From: a virus
IMG/VR virus record: IMGVR_UViG_3300015371_000013
Location: 1-64,000 of that record
DNA: 64,000 nucleotides
Strand: one strand, 5' to 3'
Shown here: piece by piece, positions 561 to 36,614 of the stretch
Layout of the letters: every line of letters starts with the position of its first letter
Numbering within the stretch: the first letter of the stretch is position 1
The notes under the pieces: model-generated
Told to the model about the DNA's origin: nothing
The model's database searches: none
What the model saw: the letters and a program-made list of their open reading frames with translations, nothing else
Translations under genes and position numbers: made by a program

Positions 561-3440
561 TCACTCAACACCTGACTTCAAGGTGGACATGGGAATGCCT
601 AGCGAACTTGAGATCTCAGCGTATGTAAAGCCTGATGACAACATCTGCTTAGCTCTAGCTGTTACAGCATCAGTCATCACAGGCCTCTCCCTAGGTGTGG
701 CTCTCCTACGAATGGCCTCTACATCAGTATACTTAAGGATGCTCTCCATCATCTCCTTAGAGATAGCTCCAGCTTGAATAGCATCCCATTGACGATCAGT
801 TAGACCTATACGATTCTTCTTTCCTCCTGCTCCAGTACGAAGTCGAGCTTCTTTAATCGCACTGTCTCTTACCTTCTTGAGCTCATCCTTCTCCATGTTA
901 GGATTAGCACTTCTTCTCTGTGCCACCATACGTCGGGCTACAGCCTGAGCCTGGCGTTCTAGAGGAGCATTCCTCTCAGCTACTCGAACAGCTGACTTTA
1001 GTTCTTCTACCTCTTTACTGTACACCTTCTTTGCCGACTTGGACATAGGGGTAAGCTTTACCCTTACCGCCTCTCTACGTGCCTCATTAGCCATAGCCTT
1101 AAGGCGATTAGAATGATCAGCGTAGTACTGTTCCTGTATGGTACCTCTACCCTTAGAGACTAGGCTATAAGCATTAGTTGTCTCAGCCAATCTCTCAGAC
1201 TTAAACCTAGCAGGCTCATCAGTTTTAACGTACCGCTTCTTACCCGTCTTAGGATCTACCTCAGCGACACGCTTACGTTCCCCAGTATCGACGTAAACCT
1301 TTCTACCTGTCTTTACATCGATGGTCCCTACTGAAAGCCGCTTTACTCCTGGCCCTGCCGGAGCATCCTTACGTTTAACCGGGTACGTCTCAGCCCCAGC
1401 TCTGGTAATCAGTGTAGCTGCACCACCAGGTAGACCGGTCTTAGGATTAACTCCTTGATACTTTCTCTTTAGTTCCAGAATTCCGTGATGTCTCTCGGAT
1501 GCCTTGTAGTCTAGATTATGTTTCTCAGAATCAATGACCACCATCGAATGACGTACAGCACGAGACAACTCTTCTCGAGTAGCACCCCTGAGAGTCATGT
1601 CAGAGATAAGGTTTGTAACCTTACCCATCTGCAAACCCTTTTGTTGTGGGGTAATAGAAGGGGTACCATCAGGATACTTCTTAGTTTTAGGTCCCAGAGG
1701 CACCTTGTATGACTGAGGATCAAACCCCTTCAAATTCTCCAAAGGCCGAGTAGACTCGATCTTACCCCTAGGATTCGGAATGACCACCACATGGTCGCCA
1801 TCGAAATCCGCACCCGACAAACGCTCTGCCACCTTGGGATGAATGGCTACGGCATCCGGAGCTCTTCCTCCTTTTCCGATACCGAAAAGCTTCTTAGCTT
1901 CTCGCGATCGATTGTTAACCGTCAACTGTGGAATCTCAAAGGTTCCCGCATGAGGAAACCGAATCAGAGCAACTCTCTCACCATCATGAAACGTAGGGGC
2001 AAAGATCTCGTGTGGTTTTACATGGTTAGAAGGAAGAAGGACTTTTGTTGCTTGCCGATCCATACTAGCTGCCGCAAGATGTACAGCAGCCGAATCAGTT
2101 TCGTCAGAGAAGGTTTCTAGAAGCTTTCTCTTAATGAGAGGATTAGTCAACGATTTGATTTCGTCGAATTCTTCTCTTCTTCGATCATGGGTAAAATCAA
2201 GCTGAGACTTGATCAACGCAGGAGACTGCTTAGACAACATCTGACTAGAGATCCGATTCGTCCAAGTATCCCAGTCACCCTCTTCAGTGAGAAGATTCAT
2301 CACTGATTTAGGTTTACCATCCTTACCCAGAATCTGTCCACCTTCTTTGATGACAGACCCGAAGGGAAGAGTCTTATCAACTTCTCCAGTTTCCTTATCC
2401 TTCTTGAGCGGCTTCATGGCGTCGAATTTGTTGCCCGTATTCGACTTATTGGTATTGAACTGAAGATCTATACCAGCAGGCAAATCGTCCTTATAGACAG
2501 CCATACCCTTCAAGAAGTGGGTGCCACCAACTGCAATTCGAACCTGAGCATAACGCGCCTTGCCAAGACTAACATCTTCCACACCCGGACGGACATAGAT
2601 AACGCCATCTGCATCAGCGCCACCATCTTCTTTGTATTTAACTCCTACTCGTTTGGGATCAATGTGAAGCGGGGGCTTAATCCCCATGTCTTGCCAGGTC
2701 TTACCACCATCCTCAGTTTTCTCAGCGATCAATCTAATGTTATCACGATTCGTCCAGGCTTGTTTCTGAGTAACCCCCGGCTTGACCAGCACCTTGTAGG
2801 TGGTCATCTCTCCGGTAGTAACTTGAGGAGCTTTGAAGGTATGGACACCATAACCCTCTTCCTTGAGCATAGAAAGAGCGGTATTGAATTTGTCCGGGCT
2901 GATACCAATTCGTGTATCGGGATTATCGCCAATAGGAAGATCGAGATGAACTTTTGATCCAACGTCAATGATATCCTTCTCTGCAACTTGCCGCTTAAGC
3001 ATATTCGCAGTTTGTTGAAGTTCATTCAGTCGTTCAAGGCGTCCAGGCTCAAGAAGTGAACGAACCGTAGATTCATTAATCTTCTTATCAGGAGACGACA
3101 TCTGATTAGCGATTGCCGTTGGGCCCATGCCTTTGTCGCGCAGACGCTGAGCTTCACGAATCTGATTCAAGGTTACCTCGGTAGAGGCCCGAGATGTCAT
3201 TGCTCGAATGTCTGCCGAAGTCATCTGATATTTCTTGATGACATTACCATCTTTATCCACAGGAGAATACGCCTTGGCGATCTCTGCTTCGGTCATCCCA
3301 TCGACCTTTTTGTGCTGCTCAACGATGTCTAGAAATGTCTTTGAGCGCTGAAGAGGATTCTGTCCCAAACCCCAGGGGTAACGACCCGATTTTCGGAGTA
3401 TTCCGTAGTGACTCAAATAGGTTTCTTCGTCCAAACGCAC
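561..3440 (-). CDS. Single-subunit double-psi beta-barrel DNA-dependent RNA polymerase with HTH domains
   Basis: RLSGADFDGDHV catalytic DxDGD motif, upstream RFPHA motif, HTH-like segments near both termini, 959 aa. Confidence 0.75.
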   Translation of the reverse strand: MRLDEETYLSHYGILRKSGRYPWGLGQNPLQRSKTFLDIVEQHKKVDGMTEAEIAKAYSPVDKDGNVIKKYQMTSADIRAMTSRASTEVTLNQIREAQRLRDKGMGPTAIANQMSSPDKKINESTVRSLLEPGRLERLNELQQTANMLKRQVAEKDIIDVGSKVHLDLPIGDNPDTRIGISPDKFNTALSMLKEEGYGVHTFKAPQVTTGEMTTYKVLVKPGVTQKQAWTNRDNIRLIAEKTEDGGKTWQDMGIKPPLHIDPKRVGVKYKEDGGADADGVIYVRPGVEDVSLGKARYAQVRIAVGGTHFLKGMAVYKDDLPAGIDLQFNTNKSNTGNKFDAMKPLKKDKETGEVDKTLPFGSVIKEGGQILGKDGKPKSVMNLLTEEGDWDTWTNRISSQMLSKQSPALIKSQLDFTHDRRREEFDEIKSLTNPLIKRKLLETFSDETDSAAVHLAAASMDRQATKVLLPSNHVKPHEIFAPTFHDGERVALIRFPHAGTFEIPQLTVNNRSREAKKLFGIGKGGRAPDAVAIHPKVAERLSGADFDGDHVVVIPNPRGKIESTRPLENLKGFDPQSYKVPLGPKTKKYPDGTPSITPQQKGLQMGKVTNLISDMTLRGATREELSRAVRHSMVVIDSEKHNLDYKASERHHGILELKRKYQGVNPKTGLPGGAATLITRAGAETYPVKRKDAPAGPGVKRLSVGTIDVKTGRKVYVDTGERKRVAEVDPKTGKKRYVKTDEPARFKSERLAETTNAYSLVSKGRGTIQEQYYADHSNRLKAMANEARREAVRVKLTPMSKSAKKVYSKEVEELKSAVRVAERNAPLERQAQAVARRMVAQRRSANPNMEKDELKKVRDSAIKEARLRTGAGGKKNRIGLTDRQWDAIQAGAISKEMMESILKYTDVEAIRRRATPRERPVMTDAVTARAKQMLSSGFTYAEISSSLGIPMSTLKSGVE

Positions 3441-4262: not shown

Positions 4263-4402
4263 GGATCCGGATCCTCGTTTCTGAAGATCCATACCGGAAA
4301 AGTGAGATGAAGAACCAGGTACTCAATCAGTCTTTTTACCACGAATCCCCTTTCAAATAGCGAAAAAAGAGAAACCAATTTCGGATATTGTATCCCTCTT
4401 CT

Positions 4403-23532: not shown

Positions 23533-23633
23533 AAAAAAGAAAGCCTGTGCGAGAATGAACTCTAAGGTTACTCACAGGTGTCTATCGCATTATTTCTCCA
23601 AAGCCTTGGATCGGCGGGCAATAGCACTCTTTC
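23533..23633 (-). ncRNA. Promoter-driven ~100-nt three-way-junction RNA
   Basis: GAAAG/CUUUC closing stem then U6; arms GUGCUAUUGC/GCGAUAGACAC and CUGUG/CACAG; no RBS-led ORF. Confidence 0.7.
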
Positions 23634-28383: not shown

Positions 28384-28421
28384 AAAAGAAAAAGAGATTC
28401 CGAATCAACGGATCTCTCTTC
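28384..28421 (-). ncRNA. Minimal cassette: promoter followed directly by hairpin and U-run
   Basis: GAAGAGAGAUCCG-UUGAUU-CGGAAUCUCUUUUUCUUUU. Confidence 0.55.
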
Positions 28422-28450: not shown

Positions 28451-29613
28451 TCAGCGGTCGTTCTTCCGATGGATTTCGAGCCTCTCGCCAGGCTTGAATC
28501 GGCATCGCCCTAATTTTCCCTCCAAGGTGGTAAGGCCTATCTCACTGGGGGTAACCCATCTCACAGACACCACGTCGGTGACTGCGAAAACGACCTCCTC
28601 GGTTTCCTCATCGACAAATATGAGTTCGAAGGTCATCGAGACTTTCCGCGAAGAATGGCGGCGAGAGCCAGTAGTTTCTGAGCTTGGTCCTCGCATGACT
28701 GAGCAATCTGATCAGCGGTCATCGTCGCATCTCCCGGCAGAATATCCAGATGAGCCAGAGCCCCCCTGTGACAACTGTCAACATGACGTCGAACACAAAG
28801 GAAAAGAAGCCATAGCGCTTTCGCGGCTCTCCGAAGTAGACATGGCGAGAATATGTCTGATTGTCACGAAAGAACTCACGCATTGTCGTCACGCTCATTG
28901 TACTTGTTCTGGATCTCAATCAGCTTGGCCGACATGCTGTCGAGAATAACTTGATCGAACTCGCTGAGCTCGATACGATTATCATCCACGATTTGCAAAA
29001 GCCGATTGCGCTGTCTGATCGTCTCTTCGAGAGCGGTAGCCAGATCCTCTCGATGTTCAATTACGATATCAATGCTTTTGAGCAGTCGCTTGACCTGAAC
29101 TATCGATACAATGTTGGTGGCGAAGAGACCAGCAATGATGGCGTAAAAGTAAATATCACTATTGAGAAATTTACGCATCCCGCTTTATCCCCTTGGCTGT
29201 GGGGTGAAACTTTAAAGCGCGCCTCTCGGCGAGTTCTCGGGTGACGGCCCGGACTTTGACGGTTCGAGTCATCCCGTTCTCATACTCCACGGTGACGTGA
29301 TACAAGCGCTTCGACTTCTTGGTCTGCACGGCAGGCTCTTTCTGTTGAGGGTAAATATGACTTACGGAAGAAGATCTCTCAGAGCAGCGTAAGCTTCTCG
29401 TTGATTTGGAGTGAGCGAGAACTCAGCATACTCATTTGCGAGTTCTTTGATTTCCTGACGTTCTTCGGGGGTGAACTGTTCACGCAAAGTGCTCGCCATG
29501 CGACGAGCATCGTTGTGAATCGTCATGATCACTGTGTAATGGATGAGAGCTTTGTCTCGTGACTTCATCAGATTCCTTTCTGAGAAAAAAGAGAGAGAAG
29601 GGAATCTATCCAA
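28451..29613 (-). other. Run of small CDSs (28451..~28636, 28719..~28883 membrane, 28876..29178 membrane, ~29171..29329, 29362..~29568)
   Basis: Coupled small ORFs; the one ending at 28719 has LTVVTGGLWLIWIFCRE. Confidence 0.6.
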
Positions 29614-29664
29614 TTCAATGGCGTATTCCTTTGCAAGCCAACAGTCAGTTGGCTCTTCTCTCTC
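29585..29664 (-). ncRNA. Promoter-driven ~80-nt three-way-junction RNA
   Basis: Perfect 10-bp GAGAGAGAAG/CUUCUCUCUC then U6; hairpins AGCCAAC/GUUGGCU and GGAAU/AUUCC. Confidence 0.75.
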
Positions 29665-29691: not shown

Positions 29692-30072
29692 CTATGCGGT
29701 CACTACATCCGGCTTCCTGGCCACCCAGGTCGAGCTGATGAGATAGAGCCCAGCCAGGGTCGACAAGAACAGACCCCAACCCGGCTGAACCAGATCGTTG
29801 ACTCCCGCCTCACTGAGATGGAACCAGACATAGGCCACTTGAGACAGGACTACGAGACCGACGAAGATCGAGACGATCCTCATGTAGAGACCGGAGACGG
29901 CGGACGCGATGACGAGTCCGATGCCTGTGAATATGGCGACCGCCACCTCGGTGAAGTTCATCGGCCCGGCGCTGATGACTCCGAGAAAGCTGATCCAGGG
30001 GCCAAGGGCACCAAAGATAAGCGCGATAGCGCCAATGGTGAGCGCGGTGGGACGGTTGAGCTTGGTAGTCAT
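29692..30072 (-). CDS. Four-TM membrane protein
   Basis: Four hydrophobic helices, GPW and PGWGL motifs; AAGGAG RBS before MTTK. Confidence 0.7.
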   Translation of the reverse strand: MTTKLNRPTALTIGAIALIFGALGPWISFLGVISAGPMNFTEVAVAIFTGIGLVIASAVSGLYMRIVSIFVGLVVLSQVAYVWFHLSEAGVNDLVQPGWGLFLSTLAGLYLISSTWVARKPDVVTA

Positions 30073-30097
30073 GATGACTCCTTTATGGATTGTGGAT

Positions 30098-30185
30098 AAA
30101 AAAGAGAGACCCATCTCCTCCTGCTGTCGTAGCATGGCTTCGTTGGCAGGTCGCGTAGCATAGCTTCGCTGTGGAGATAGGTCTC
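30098..30185 (-). ncRNA. ~85-nt RNA with two copies of hairpin CGAAGC(U/C)AUGCUACG
   Basis: Stem GAGACCUAUCUCC/GGAGAUGGGUCUC then U-run; repeats at 30128-42 and 30154-68. Confidence 0.7.
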
Positions 30186-30195
30186 AAAATATAAA

Positions 30196-30314
30196 GAAAC
30201 CCCAGCACATTGCTCTACCTGGGCGCAATGCACTAGATAGAGTTAGGTGGGCACTCGAGGTACTTTTTACACCGTAGCCTGAGCGCAATGCATCAGACTA
30301 ACTGCTGGGGTTTC
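30196..30314 (-). ncRNA. Promoter-driven ~120-nt RNA with duplicated UGCAUUGCGC(U/C)CAGG
   Basis: Perfect 12-bp terminal stem 30196-207/30303-314; repeats 30218-32 and 30278-92. Confidence 0.75.
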
Positions 30315-30338
30315 ATTATACCACGGGTTTTCTACGCG
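30315..30338 (-). promoter_or_regulatory. Phage promoter element CGCG-N14-TATAAT
   Basis: Consensus match; overlaps stop codon of upstream gene. Confidence 0.8.
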
Positions 30339-30739
30339 AATACGGAATTCGGCAAAGCCGCAAACCGTTCTTGTAACCCGTGAATATCCTGAGCAATCTC
30401 ACGAGCGTTTTTGCCAACAACGGCTGCAGCTCGATTGATGCTCGGATAAGGTTCGCCAGTCAGCTTGTCCAAAACAGGAATTGGCTCACGACAAGCTCTT
30501 TTTACGAGGGCTATCTGGGTGATCTTGGGCTTCCAGATAATCAACGCCGTATTCTTTGCTTTCTGCTGTATCTCAAGCGGCAAACCGTTGAGACGAAGTA
30601 GAATGGTGGTCGCAGTGACAGAAGAGCCCACCGCGAGACATCCTGCGCCGACGAGATACACCTTCTTGTTCTCCTGCAGATGCTGCTTAACCCGCTCGAT
30701 CTTGGTACGATCGTCCTGCTTTTCTCCTTCCTGACTCAT
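30332..30739 (-). CDS. Membrane-anchored protein with C-terminal NUMOD1-like HTH (paralog of 34325..34705)
   Basis: KQHL..NKKVYLVGAGCL; PVLDKLTGEPYPSINRAA. Confidence 0.65.
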   Translation of the reverse strand: MSQEGEKQDDRTKIERVKQHLQENKKVYLVGAGCLAVGSSVTATTILLRLNGLPLEIQQKAKNTALIIWKPKITQIALVKRACREPIPVLDKLTGEPYPSINRAAAVVGKNAREIAQDIHGLQERFAALPNSVFA

Positions 30740-30922: not shown

Positions 30923-30984
30923 AAAAAATGAAAGAGATCACAATTTCGAATATGCGATTACAGGAGCCTTTCTCCTTCTCTTTC
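30923..30984 (-). ncRNA. Promoter-driven ~60-nt three-way-junction RNA
   Basis: GAAAGAG/CUCUUUC stem then A-U6; hairpins AGGAG/CUCCU and AUCGCA/UGUGAU. Confidence 0.65.
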
Positions 30985-31373: not shown

Positions 31374-31994
31374 CTAGCCAACCTCCTTGCTGGCCTGTAT
31401 CGAAGCGCTTACACCAATGATTCTGCAGAGAAGATTGATCGAATCGTGAGAATGCAGCGGCTCGTAATGCGGATTGAGCTTGTCTTGCTTTACCAGATCA
31501 ACGATGCCCTGAATATCCGTACGCCATTGAGAAGACGTATAGTAATCGGCCAGCCCGCGATCCGTACGCTTAAGCGTGTCAAGGAACTTATCCTCGGCAA
31601 TCTCCTTAATACGATTTGCCCATTCCGAGGTAATTTCCATAGTCGCCCCTGTGCCCTTCTGAACGAAGGGCGAATTGTCGACGTACTGCATAGCGTCGTT
31701 GTAGATTCGAGCAACCACGATCTCCTTGAGGGCATCCTGACCATAGATCAGGACAGCATAACCCAAGGGCAGATTCCAGATCTTCTCCGGACGACCATGA
31801 TGAACGCCCTGAGTGAGGCAGTTGTAGCCCCACTCGATTTCCTTCTGAGACTTCTGAGGACCCTTTACCTTGATGAACTTCACCATATTCTCAGCCTCGT
31901 ATTCCGAGACATCAAGTTCTTTGGCGATTTCACTGATAGAACGGTCTTCGCCTATCATCTGACGAGTTCGAGCTAGTTTCTCTTGGGTGTTCAT
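31374..31994 (-). CDS. N-terminal HTH protein
   Basis: RSISEIAKELDVS; AGAGGAG RBS. Confidence 0.6.
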   Translation of the reverse strand: MNTQEKLARTRQMIGEDRSISEIAKELDVSEYEAENMVKFIKVKGPQKSQKEIEWGYNCLTQGVHHGRPEKIWNLPLGYAVLIYGQDALKEIVVARIYNDAMQYVDNSPFVQKGTGATMEITSEWANRIKEIAEDKFLDTLKRTDRGLADYYTSSQWRTDIQGIVDLVKQDKLNPHYEPLHSHDSINLLCRIIGVSASIQASKEVG

Positions 31995-32099: not shown

Positions 32100-32569
32100 T
32101 CATTGATCTCCAAGTCCGGTATCGCGCAGAATTTTTCGCGAGATTTCCTTCGGATCAGTCAACCCTTGCCATTCTGTTCCTTCGCGGATGGCAAACAGGA
32201 CGTCAATCACGGCCAGATTGTATCCGACAAACTTAGCCTGATCCTCCGGAGAAATCTCTAGGTCGCCAGGCACAGGCTCAGCAATCTGCATGAAAGTATC
32301 TTGAAGCTCTTTGAGTCGAGCTTTTTCGGTTTCGGTGATCATTGCTCTCCTAAATATAGTGATTAATCGTCGATAACCAGAGGGTCAAACCATCGACCAT
32401 CTAGATCATGACGAAACCCTGCCTCAAGCATACGTTGTTCGATAATCTCCGGATGCTCGGCCTCCATGTGCCGCACCTCTTCGTGCGTATTGTTGGCAAC
32501 TGCTCCACAATATGGGCAATGCCTCACACAATAAGGTCCGGAGCTCATGGGGTAATCCTCGTCATACAC
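32100..32569 (-). other. Two small CDSs (32100..32342; 32363..~32548 with CxxC/HxxxxH zinc finger)
   Basis: RBS; CPYC...HM..EH. Confidence 0.55.
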
Positions 32570-33021
32570 AGACTGATTCCACTCTGGGTACTCATGTAGC
32601 GCGCATCAGGCCAGATTCCCTTGCGATGAAGATCCAGCCGGTCGGCGTCCCAACAGGTGGCGATAGTGGGATTGATCGCTCTTTGACCAGAGCTATGCTC
32701 CACACAGGCCTCGAACAGTAGTTCTATTTGCTCATCGAAAATATAGCGATGGAGATGCTCTTGCGTCTTGTAGAAGCGTTCCCACAATCGATACCCTCGA
32801 TTTCCATGATCAGGATCTTTACCATCGTTTACCCGCATGGAGTCGTGAAATAAAGCGTACAACGCCACAACTTCCATGTCGGCGCCGGTTTCATACCCGT
32901 TTAGCATCTGAGCGTTCTGCCAGACCCTAAACCAATGGTCAAGACCATGGAGTCGACTCTGGAGAACGTTCAGGGTTATAGACTCGCCCAAGACAAAGGG
33001 AACGCAATGACTGGCGAGCAT
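32545..33021 (-). CDS. HD-domain phosphohydrolase
   Basis: HG..HW.RV, ALFHD, H, CWDADRLD. Confidence 0.85.
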   Translation of the reverse strand: MLASHCVPFVLGESITLNVLQSRLHGLDHWFRVWQNAQMLNGYETGADMEVVALYALFHDSMRVNDGKDPDHGNRGYRLWERFYKTQEHLHRYIFDEQIELLFEACVEHSSGQRAINPTIATCWDADRLDLHRKGIWPDARYMSTQSGISLCMTRITP

Positions 33022-34193: not shown

Positions 34194-34298
34194 AAAGAAA
34201 AGAGAGAGCCACCTACCAACGACTTATAGAAGTTGGGATCCGACCCCCTTAAAGGGGATCTCGTCAAGGCGACTTAGAGAAGCCTAGATGACTCTCTC
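34194..34298 (-). ncRNA. Promoter-driven ~100-nt four-way-junction RNA with duplicated CUUCU(C/A)UAAGUCG
   Basis: 14-bp terminal stem with two G-U pairs; three hairpins, the outer two sharing the motif. Confidence 0.78.
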
Positions 34299-34324: not shown

Positions 34325-34705
34325 TTATATGGTGATACGTTCGAAGTGCAACCCATTCGCATGCGGGTATTTACCGTTCAGATGCTGTGAAAGGTTAGTT
34401 TCCGAGATGCCCTTCGCCAAAGCGGCCTCTGCTTGGCTGCTCCACTTCTCCAGAGTTTCGAGACATCGTACTGGATTAGCCGGGTAATTGCGCTGGTTCA
34501 AATACTTGATGACCACGTCGACATTCTTTGACTTATTGACTATCAGACCAATGTTGTCAGTACCATTGAACGTCTGAATTACATTGGGGCTTGACACCCC
34601 GCGCAGCAAATATCCCGCGGTAAGACATCCTGCACCAACCAAGTAAACCTTCTTGTTGTCCTTCAAATGCTGCTTGATCTTCTGATAACGCGTAGACTCT
34701 TCCAT
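34325..34705 (-). CDS. Membrane-anchored protein with C-terminal NUMOD1-like HTH
   Basis: KIKQHLKDNKKVYLVGAGCL; PVRCLETLEKWSSQAEAA...SQHLNGK...GLHF. Confidence 0.7.
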   Translation of the reverse strand: MEESTRYQKIKQHLKDNKKVYLVGAGCLTAGYLLRGVSSPNVIQTFNGTDNIGLIVNKSKNVDVVIKYLNQRNYPANPVRCLETLEKWSSQAEAALAKGISETNLSQHLNGKYPHANGLHFERITI

Positions 34706-36520: not shown

Positions 36521-36614
36521 TGGAGTTCTCCAGTGTAGAGGTTTGGTTTCATTATAACCCATGAAATATGCGCGTAAAAAAAGAGAAGCCGGGTTAGGAC
36601 TCCTCTCTAACGAT

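Follow-up and report, generated by a model that had tools for sequence, protein, structure and literature searches.

A 119-nt element on the minus strand of an uncultured soil phage genome, here called M1, is by its fold and its conservation among relatives a genuine, tightly folded non-coding RNA gene. Its two ends are closed by a 12-bp clamp, and two of the three arms within the clamp carry the same hairpin motif. We tentatively propose that M1 is a stand-alone, self-terminating small RNA that serves as a bivalent hairpin ligand for a putative, probably dimeric, binder, and put the chances of this reading somewhat short of even. The structured non-coding RNAs that phages encode have so far been poorly catalogued, and none of the clamped RNAs of this lineage is annotated or contained in Rfam.

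Location and fold of the M1 RNA

The window, i.e. the whole 64,000-nt stretch analysed, corresponds to the initial 64 kb of a siphovirus record in IMG/VR that is complete at 80.5 kb. Among the gene products of the phage are a YonO-like two-barrel RNA polymerase (561-3440, phrog_4291), a primase-polymerase and a 1978-aa tape measure protein, and nearly all genes lie on the minus strand. The nearest cultured kin of the phage, with 49% identity in the polymerase, are phages of Gordonia, Streptomyces, Arthrobacter and Curtobacterium. The following features are referred to by their positions in the window:

30196..30314, minus strand: module M1, a 119-nt four-way-junction RNA, from folding, covariation and a covariance model
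30315..30340, minus strand: promoter-like element with TTCGCG (30335-30340), a 14-nt spacer and TATAAT (30315-30320)
30303..30314, minus strand: 5' arm of the clamp, GAAACCCCAGCA, whose start is the first base after TATAAT
30275..30300, minus strand: arm hp1 with motif copy 1 (30278-30292), a 6-bp stem, a bulged U and an AUUGC loop
30246..30273, minus strand: arm hp2, in which the GGUG...CACC stem is invariant, the internal strand is YAAAA(A) and the tip varies
30213..30242, minus strand: arm hp3 with motif copy 2 (30218-30232)
30208..30212, minus strand: junction strand CAAUG linking hp3 to the clamp, invariant in 9 of 9 aligned RNAs
30196..30207, minus strand: 3' arm of the clamp, UGCUGGGGUUUC, an inverted repeat with the 5' arm
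30186..30195, minus strand: U-rich tail and linker UUUAUAUUUU, the terminator tail of M1 and spacer to M2
30106..30185, minus strand: module M2, an 80-nt three-way-junction RNA with a 13-bp clamp (z = -6.52)
30096..30105, minus strand: U-tract after M2, UCUUUUUUAU
30332..30739, minus strand: upstream gene, whose 135-aa product has a single predicted membrane helix and, at the C-terminus, a NUMOD-like helix-turn-helix fold (phrog_27818)
29692..30072, minus strand: downstream gene for a 126-aa membrane protein, with a ribosome-binding site near 30078-30084 and ATG at 30070-30072
~34202-34298, 30930-30984, 29591-29664, 28389-28421, 23540-23633 and 4366-4402, minus strand: six other cassettes without an open reading frame

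The sequence-only reading of this stretch had described a promoter-driven RNA with a 12-bp clamp and a 15-nt motif occurring twice, 60 nt apart. Both the clamp and the motif pair were recovered at exactly the positions claimed, as parts of a minus-strand RNA, in the order clamp, arm 1 with motif copy 1, arm 2 and arm 3 with motif copy 2. Each arm of the clamp is single-copy in the 80.5-kb genome, even with two mismatches allowed, and a repeat search extended the inverted repeat, which encloses 95 nt with the three arms, to 18 nt at 94% complementarity. The motif UGCAUUGCGC(U/C)CAGG could likewise be extended to a 20-nt repeat with 85% identity at the same 60-nt spacing. A third copy with up to two mismatches was not found on either strand of the 80.5-kb genome, and a pattern scan gave 0.40 matches expected at this stringency in the whole window. 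By our own estimate, the chance of finding two copies with at most one mismatch within one 119-nt element is about 3e-4.

The predicted minus-strand fold has a free energy of -57.1 kcal/mol (z = -5.08), and none of 200 shuffled sequences folded as well, whereas the fold of the plus strand is weaker (z = -3.72). The minimum free energy structure is identical to the centroid, and each motif copy has a separate partner strand. Together with the covariation that backs the junction, this leaves the earlier suggestion of alternative folds without support.

The promoter is predicted from its motif, as the 26 nt upstream of M1 fit a promoter-like family, TTCGCG-N14-TATAAT-GA(A/G)ACC, with about 24 copies on the minus strand between 4402 and 38070 of the window (for example at 36550, 35984, 34169, 30314 and 24019). 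With this qualification, the description of an RNA running from a promoter to a U-tract, with a closing clamp and two motif copies, stands. The whole promoter-like motif is 30-35 nt long and falls into two sub-classes by its spacer, ATATTTCA... or GAAAAAC.... The TTCGCG box in front of M1 consists of the last two codons of the upstream gene, whose TAG stop codon (30332-30334) thus falls inside the promoter. The promoter core CCTATAATGAGACCCC is also present in Gordonia cluster DJ phages, Rhodococcus phage ReqiPepy6 and Streptomyces phage Rima, all of which encode a YonO-like polymerase. The promoter of this polymerase was undefined as of a 2017 study (PMC5467207), and the family described here may be that promoter, with transcription starting at the G after TATAAT.

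Behind most copies of the motif stands a small gene with its ribosome-binding site and a short leader. Seven copies, including that of M1, are not followed by a gene, and the bases right after TATAAT pair with the bases before a U-tract. Since the pairing begins at the first base past TATAAT in all seven, irrespective of the identity of the bases, the start of transcription is probably located there, which provides a start-site prediction for the promoter family of phages with YonO-like polymerases. If M1 were instead served by an ordinary sigma-A-type promoter, the start would fall about 7 nt inside the clamp, which would thereby be shortened. The cassette at 34 kb again forms a four-way junction with twin CUUCU(C/A)UAAGUCG arms and differing basal stems. 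Between these two RNA-bearing regions lie, both on the minus strand, a gene for an HD-domain-like protein (32545-33021; a weak match below the Pfam cut-off) and one for a 206-aa protein with an N-terminal helix-turn-helix-like stretch (31374-31994).

M2 directly adjoins M1 downstream. Its two hairpins are copies of CG-A-AGC-YAU-GCU-A-CG (30154-30168 and 30128-30142), a 15-mer repeat with an A.A mismatch, and the G-U pairs of its clamp are possible only in the minus-strand RNA. M2 lacks a separate promoter box, so transcription probably continues into it from M1 through the AU-rich linker. The gene for the 126-aa membrane protein also has no promoter of its own after M2, and therefore M1 and M2 could act as a leader of this gene in this phage. 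An in-frame AUG at 30114 (minus strand) follows a GGAGG inside the 3' clamp arm of M2, upstream of the likely start at 30072, and is probably unused because the spacing is too short for a normal start.

Searches for a known identity of M1 returned no match. Rfam 15 gave no hit in the whole 64-kb window, and a permissive Rfam scan of 29950-30450 listed only P26 (15.8 bits vs. 36) and sR38 (11.9 bits vs. 50), both below threshold. ARAGORN found no tRNA or tmRNA gene in the window. A retron msr-msd RNA, to which the clamp would be suited, was rejected as the whole 80.5-kb genome has no RVT_1 match and hence no reverse transcriptase. No tandem array was found and the downstream 126-aa membrane protein has no family match, so that a type III antitoxin RNA of the ToxI kind was rejected as well. 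Two further candidates, a hammerhead ribozyme suggested by CUGAUG in arm 1 (without an Rfam match) and a small open reading frame of 8 codons starting at an AUG in arm 1 (without a ribosome-binding site), are not conserved among relatives. The whole 119-nt RNA, including the 45-nt segment between the motif copies whose comparison with phages had been suggested earlier, had no match in the phage and plasmid collections (blastn, E <= 10).

Fixed frame and exchangeable hairpin tips among relatives

A search of the protein collection gave 34 homologues of the 135-aa protein, and a profile scan of metagenome contigs with this protein provided 10 loci from soil and sediment. Each of the ten has the same promoter motif downstream of the gene, and then one to three clamped modules. 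The order of gene and RNA is thus kept in all relatives, the promoter motif stands upstream of every RNA, and every clamp is followed by a U-rich tract. In most of them, the module lies between its own promoter and a second promoter serving the next gene and is therefore a separate transcription unit.

Covariation was analysed in nine M1-type RNAs of one clade, each downstream of a homologue of the same gene. They align with 48 invariant positions and share a frame made up of the clamp, the UAGC/GCUA base of arm 1, the GGUG-YAAAA...CACC arm 2, a UAA strand, the CUC.../...GAG base of arm 3 and the CAAUG junction. Compensatory changes are seen in 9 of the 27 consensus pairs. Paired cells amount to 96.3% compared to 85.5% in shuffled alignments, and double-change cells to 25 compared to 7.4. 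The observed score was reached by none of 500 shuffles, and slid controls dropped to 30-58% paired. In the clamp, GAAACC/GGUUUC of the window is replaced by GAGACC/GGUCUC in relatives, which is one of these compensatory changes. The basal pairs UAGC/GCUA of hp1 covary with CAGC/GCUG in the loci L119 and L120, columns 80-82 of the alignment covary with 101-103 in the basal helix of hp3, and columns 46-49 and 70-73 in hp2 are invariant. The frame is nearly invariant although the adjacent gene shows only 58-65% DNA identity and 39-62% protein identity among relatives. The third module (M3) of L128, for example, is 88% identical to M1 as an RNA, even though the neighbouring protein is only 39% identical.

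A covariance model of this family, R1, has a single M1 match in the genome, with 114 bits, and M1 shows all features of the type: the clamp, the UAGC/GCUA arm base, the GGUG-YAAAA-CACC arm and the CAAUG junction. Besides the nine full members, the family includes L122:489-602 (49 bits), the truncated L122:1044-1099 (44 bits) and the first module of L128 (38 bits). No member was detected in the genomes of ReqiPepy6, Conley, Artorias and Petito, and by these scans R1 is found only in this uncultured clade. A pattern scan of IMG/VR for the frame returned no match. The same pattern had seven matches from unrelated taxa in the genome collection, which were discarded: two (L129 and L131) scored 13-14 bits and are chance matches, and the other five gave nothing at E <= 1. 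An exact-pattern scan of IMG/VR for the 15-mer yielded at least 117 single chance matches and none with two copies. In viral contigs, neither single-protein scans for the two flanking genes nor a profile scan found anything, and four DNA sequencing runs contained identical low-depth contigs without variants and thus no population-level covariation.

While the frame is fixed among relatives, arms 1 and 3 differ by complete replacement of their distal parts, which are the most variable part of the RNA. The hairpin types include GACGUUCCGUCGUC, GAUCUUCGUGA, GUUGGUUCGCC, CGUGGCUAUGCC and CAUUGCG, with loops such as AUUGC, YAU, UUC(G) and similar. In about 21 of the 27 modules examined, an identical distal block including the loop occurs in two or three arms; L124 M1, L119 M2 and modules of the phages Avazak and Gravy have non-identical arms. 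Most RNAs have the twins in arms 1 and 3. L119 and L120 have them in arms 1 and 2, and L126 and the first module of L128 carry the shared hairpin in three arms. From this distribution, multivalency rather than the position of the arm is what is kept.

In at least 12 related modules, the identical block comprises the distal hairpin with loop and bulge, and the basal stems below it differ and still pair. Examples are the second module of L127 (GGAA/UUCC vs. CUCU/AGAG) and L126 (GA/UC, AU/AU and CU/AG), in which all stems are complementary. Identical tips over differing but paired stems therefore speak for the hairpin tip as the selected RNA structure, and against double-stranded direct repeats. 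Alternatively, the twins could be kept alike by gene conversion instead of selection. The hairpin type of the window has an AUUGC pentaloop closed by C-G, then a covarying G-C or U-A pair, and then a bulge or 1x1 mismatch. It occurs on four unrelated frames, namely that of M1 and L128 M3, that of L126 with three copies, and those of modules M1 and M2 of the cultured Gordonia phage Conley.

The sequence-only reading had proposed a comparison of relatives in which the segment between the repeats would vary and the repeats would stay fixed. The opposite was observed, as the repeats vary most and the segment between them is partly invariant. In this alignment, the behaviour of the hairpins is the opposite of a CRISPR-like repeat-spacer pattern.

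Proposed function and competing readings

Three hypotheses had been offered for the repeated motif, and two binding sites fit best, given the identical distal hairpins over differing yet paired basal stems in at least 12 modules. In the reading we prefer, a discrete, stable RNA of about 120-130 nt would be made from M1, probably starting at the G right after TATAAT and ending at its own clamp and U-tract, where the transcript of the upstream gene would be terminated as well. The first transcribed bases would pair with the last bases before the U-tract, so that the 5' and 3' ends are locked in the 12-bp clamp. M1 would then act in trans through bivalent display of one hairpin ligand, and would bind or titrate a protein that recognises hairpins and is probably a dimer, encoded by the phage, its host or a competing element. 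In this picture, the frame would be a socket for exchangeable distal hairpins, and the hairpin plugged in would determine the partner. Such a design, with a locked frame and tips that are swapped between phages yet present in two or three identical copies, is unusual, and the single repeated hairpin type offers a concrete handle for a partner search by pull-down.

Known RNAs resemble M1 in part. CsrB, RsmY and RsmZ are also small, terminator-ended RNAs with several copies of one short hairpin motif, and a dimeric protein bridges two of their hairpin copies. In contrast, M1 has only two or three copies, its ends are locked by a 12-bp clamp and its hairpin identity is exchangeable between phages; a CsrB/Rsm-type sponge was rejected since the hairpin loops contain no GGA motifs. 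To our knowledge, Actinobacteria lack CsrA. The lambda boxB/nut site and the MS2 and PP7 operators are small hairpins recognised by a cognate protein, with either a pentaloop or a bulge located two pairs under the loop. They vary among related phages and are the same at both sites of one phage. M1 differs in that both copies reside in one self-terminated RNA, no boxA is present and no N-like or coat-like partner is known.

A wider version of this proposal is that the modules form a plug-and-socket RNA arsenal whose exchangeable ligands titrate proteins of host defences or rival phages. Each ligand type would titrate a different hairpin-binding protein, and the cassettes would be shuffled like anti-defence genes. 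This is speculative and rather unlikely as it stands; if true, it would mean that actinobacteriophages possess an RNA-based counter-defence repertoire.

Of the rival explanations, which are taken here in order of weight, the strongest is that M1 acts only in cis, as an elaborate intrinsic terminator or insulator combined with a recombination cassette, in which the inner hairpins merely stabilise the structure and have no partner. The stable 12-bp clamp stem directly followed by the U-tract UUUAUAUUUU has the form of an intrinsic terminator, as have clamp and U-tract in every relative, and the genome is built of promoter-gene-terminator cassettes in which U-runs continue into the next promoter. 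M1 does not form a simple terminator hairpin with a loop of 3-8 nt, and a consensus terminator scan made no call. Modules also change their site. The second module of Conley recurs in the phages Artorias, FortCran and Perkunas with 88-98% identity at two genome positions, 38.9 kb in Conley and 32.3 kb in Artorias, without an annotated feature. The gene upstream of the RNAs in Conley, gp54 (L137:2983-3411), is nearly identical in its first 28 residues to gp55, the 38-kb paralogue of Artorias (L145:4340-4738), but has only 40% identity to it overall. To gp44, the 32-kb paralogue of Artorias (L139:1198-1599), it has 59% identity over the whole aligned length, and the RNA of gp44 also follows gp54 in Conley, where the 32-kb paralogue has been lost from its usual site. 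Conley gp54 thus looks like a chimera with the N-terminus of the 38-kb paralogue and the C-terminal domain and following RNA of the 32-kb paralogue, which argues for cassette mobility and for a linkage of the C-terminal domain with the RNA.

Such shuffling is mediated in T4-type phages by PeSLs, 'empty' promoter-terminator units that resemble the present cassettes as repeated composites of a variable early region (PMC2839356). The cargo of M1 differs from that of PeSLs in being itself a conserved structured RNA, and its terminator stem consists of the RNA's own two ends (PMC2839356). A terminator would need neither the invariant unpaired junction (CAAUG, YAAAA and UAA) nor identical hairpin tips over compensatory stems, and ordinary cassettes of the same genome are terminated by short, simple hairpins. 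The occurrence of one hairpin type on unrelated frames in distant phages is also left unexplained, and a role in cis only is therefore considered unlikely, though to be taken seriously.

Lambda nut regions follow the order promoter, pentaloop hairpins, terminator and genes. M1 has the same layout and could be a cis-acting antitermination or polymerase-modifying site, like nut (boxB) or HK022 put, that lets polymerase read through its own and later terminators. The downstream gene has no promoter of its own in this phage, and boxB-like hairpins vary between related phages together with their cognate protein. Nevertheless, this reading is improbable, since a full promoter after the module in most relatives makes read-through needless and the clamp between the 5' and 3' ends forms only once the terminator has been transcribed. 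Seven such cassettes are furthermore scattered across the genome, and no N-like or Q-like gene was recognised.

It is quite improbable that M1 regulates by base pairing, with its twin loops contacting two sites of a host RNA or kissing another RNA. The display of the loops on rigid arms speaks for it, but the loops comprise only 3-5 nt once the stems are counted. Complements to the loops and the junction were sought among the transcripts of the phage itself, which gave chance matches of 8-9 nt at best, none of them at a ribosome-binding site.

The repeats could also function as DNA, i.e. as 15-bp operators, iterons or a membrane-tethering site for the upstream NUMOD-like protein, or as hairpin priming or origin signals. 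The C-terminal domain of the 135-aa protein has a beta-beta-alpha-alpha-beta order and is weakly similar to the DNA-binding modules of I-TevI and I-HmuI (E 0.1-0.3), while a Foldseek search with the protein model (pLDDT 66.6) gave nothing at E <= 0.001. A paralogue with 31% identity (34325-34705, minus strand), likewise a small protein with a single membrane helix and a NUMOD-like fold at its C-terminus, precedes the twin-hairpin four-way-junction RNA at 34 kb, and both paralogues end inside the promoter of such an RNA. The same two paralogues with the same RNA linkage are found in Gordonia DJ phages, and the order of gene and repeats is kept as far as the Gordonia and Rhodococcus phages. The C-terminal domain seems to have been transferred jointly with the RNA in Conley, and RNA-based origins exist in actinophages (PMC7157519). 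Simple adjacency would predict the same linkage, and double-stranded sites would need no compensatory basal stems, closing clamp, promoter or U-tract. The G-U pairs of the M2 clamp work only in the minus-strand RNA. The putative recognition helix of the protein does not match the hairpin type one-to-one, and by our reading of the charges under the positive-inside rule its folded domain may face the cell exterior. For these two reasons, the 135-aa protein is not named as the partner of M1. Overall, a DNA-level function is very doubtful.

M1 is located in the variable early region, which is the usual seat of counter-defence genes. A Racr-like mimic, the remaining one of the three earlier hypotheses, would imitate a CRISPR repeat of the host, or else a type III antitoxin unit, to sequester Cas proteins or a toxin and is a special case of the decoy reading. 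Racrs are promoter-driven, solitary repeat units encoded by phages and thus, like M1, hairpin-unit RNAs that may be decoys of a hairpin-binding protein; M1 differs from this description in repeating only 15-20 nt instead of a full repeat, in varying among close relatives and in conserving the frame and not the repeat (PMC10651486). CRISPR repeats have 28-37 nt, different hairpins are carried even by phages isolated on one Gordonia rubripertincta strain, and neither tandem units nor a toxin-like neighbour are present, which makes this the least probable of the readings, and a far-fetched one.

Related RNAs in cultured phages

By sequence comparison, the undescribed RNA class is also present, unannotated and on other frames, in cultured Gordonia and Rhodococcus phages. 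In ReqiPepy6 and the Gordonia cluster DJ phages, the homologue of the upstream gene is followed by unannotated gaps of 130-365 bp. The promoter motif recurs in these gaps, together with clamped modules that have other frames and, in most cases, twin or triple hairpins. In Streptomyces phage Rima, which shares the promoter family, no clamped cassette without an open reading frame was found in the gaps inspected. The announcements of the cluster DJ phages Vardy and Conley reported a 43-50-bp intergenic TATAAT motif and large gaps between central genes (PMC9671010, PMC10868162). These are the promoter-like motif found upstream of M1 and the same gaps, but the motif was taken as the promoter of protein genes, and the RNAs in the gaps were neither described nor annotated (PMC9671010, PMC10868162). 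This actinobacteriophage lineage devotes several strongly promoted cassettes per genome to RNAs rather than proteins. Gordonia phages isolated in classrooms belong to it and are amenable to cultivation and engineering.

Two further groups of RNAs were observed in these genomes. A conserved clamped RNA without twin arms is shared by Gravy (L140:~1600-1720) and module A of ReqiPepy6 (L136:3393-3500), with common stretches around CGCUAAYCCUUGARUCGC and UUGGAAGGUA, and is probably another undescribed RNA family. Hairpins framed by GCCACC...GGAGAC are found with CUUUAUGAG in Artorias (L145:4753-4855) and in module C of ReqiPepy6 (L136), and with CGCCUAUCGG in Petito (L141), and the proteins encoded upstream of them in Artorias and Petito are closely similar.
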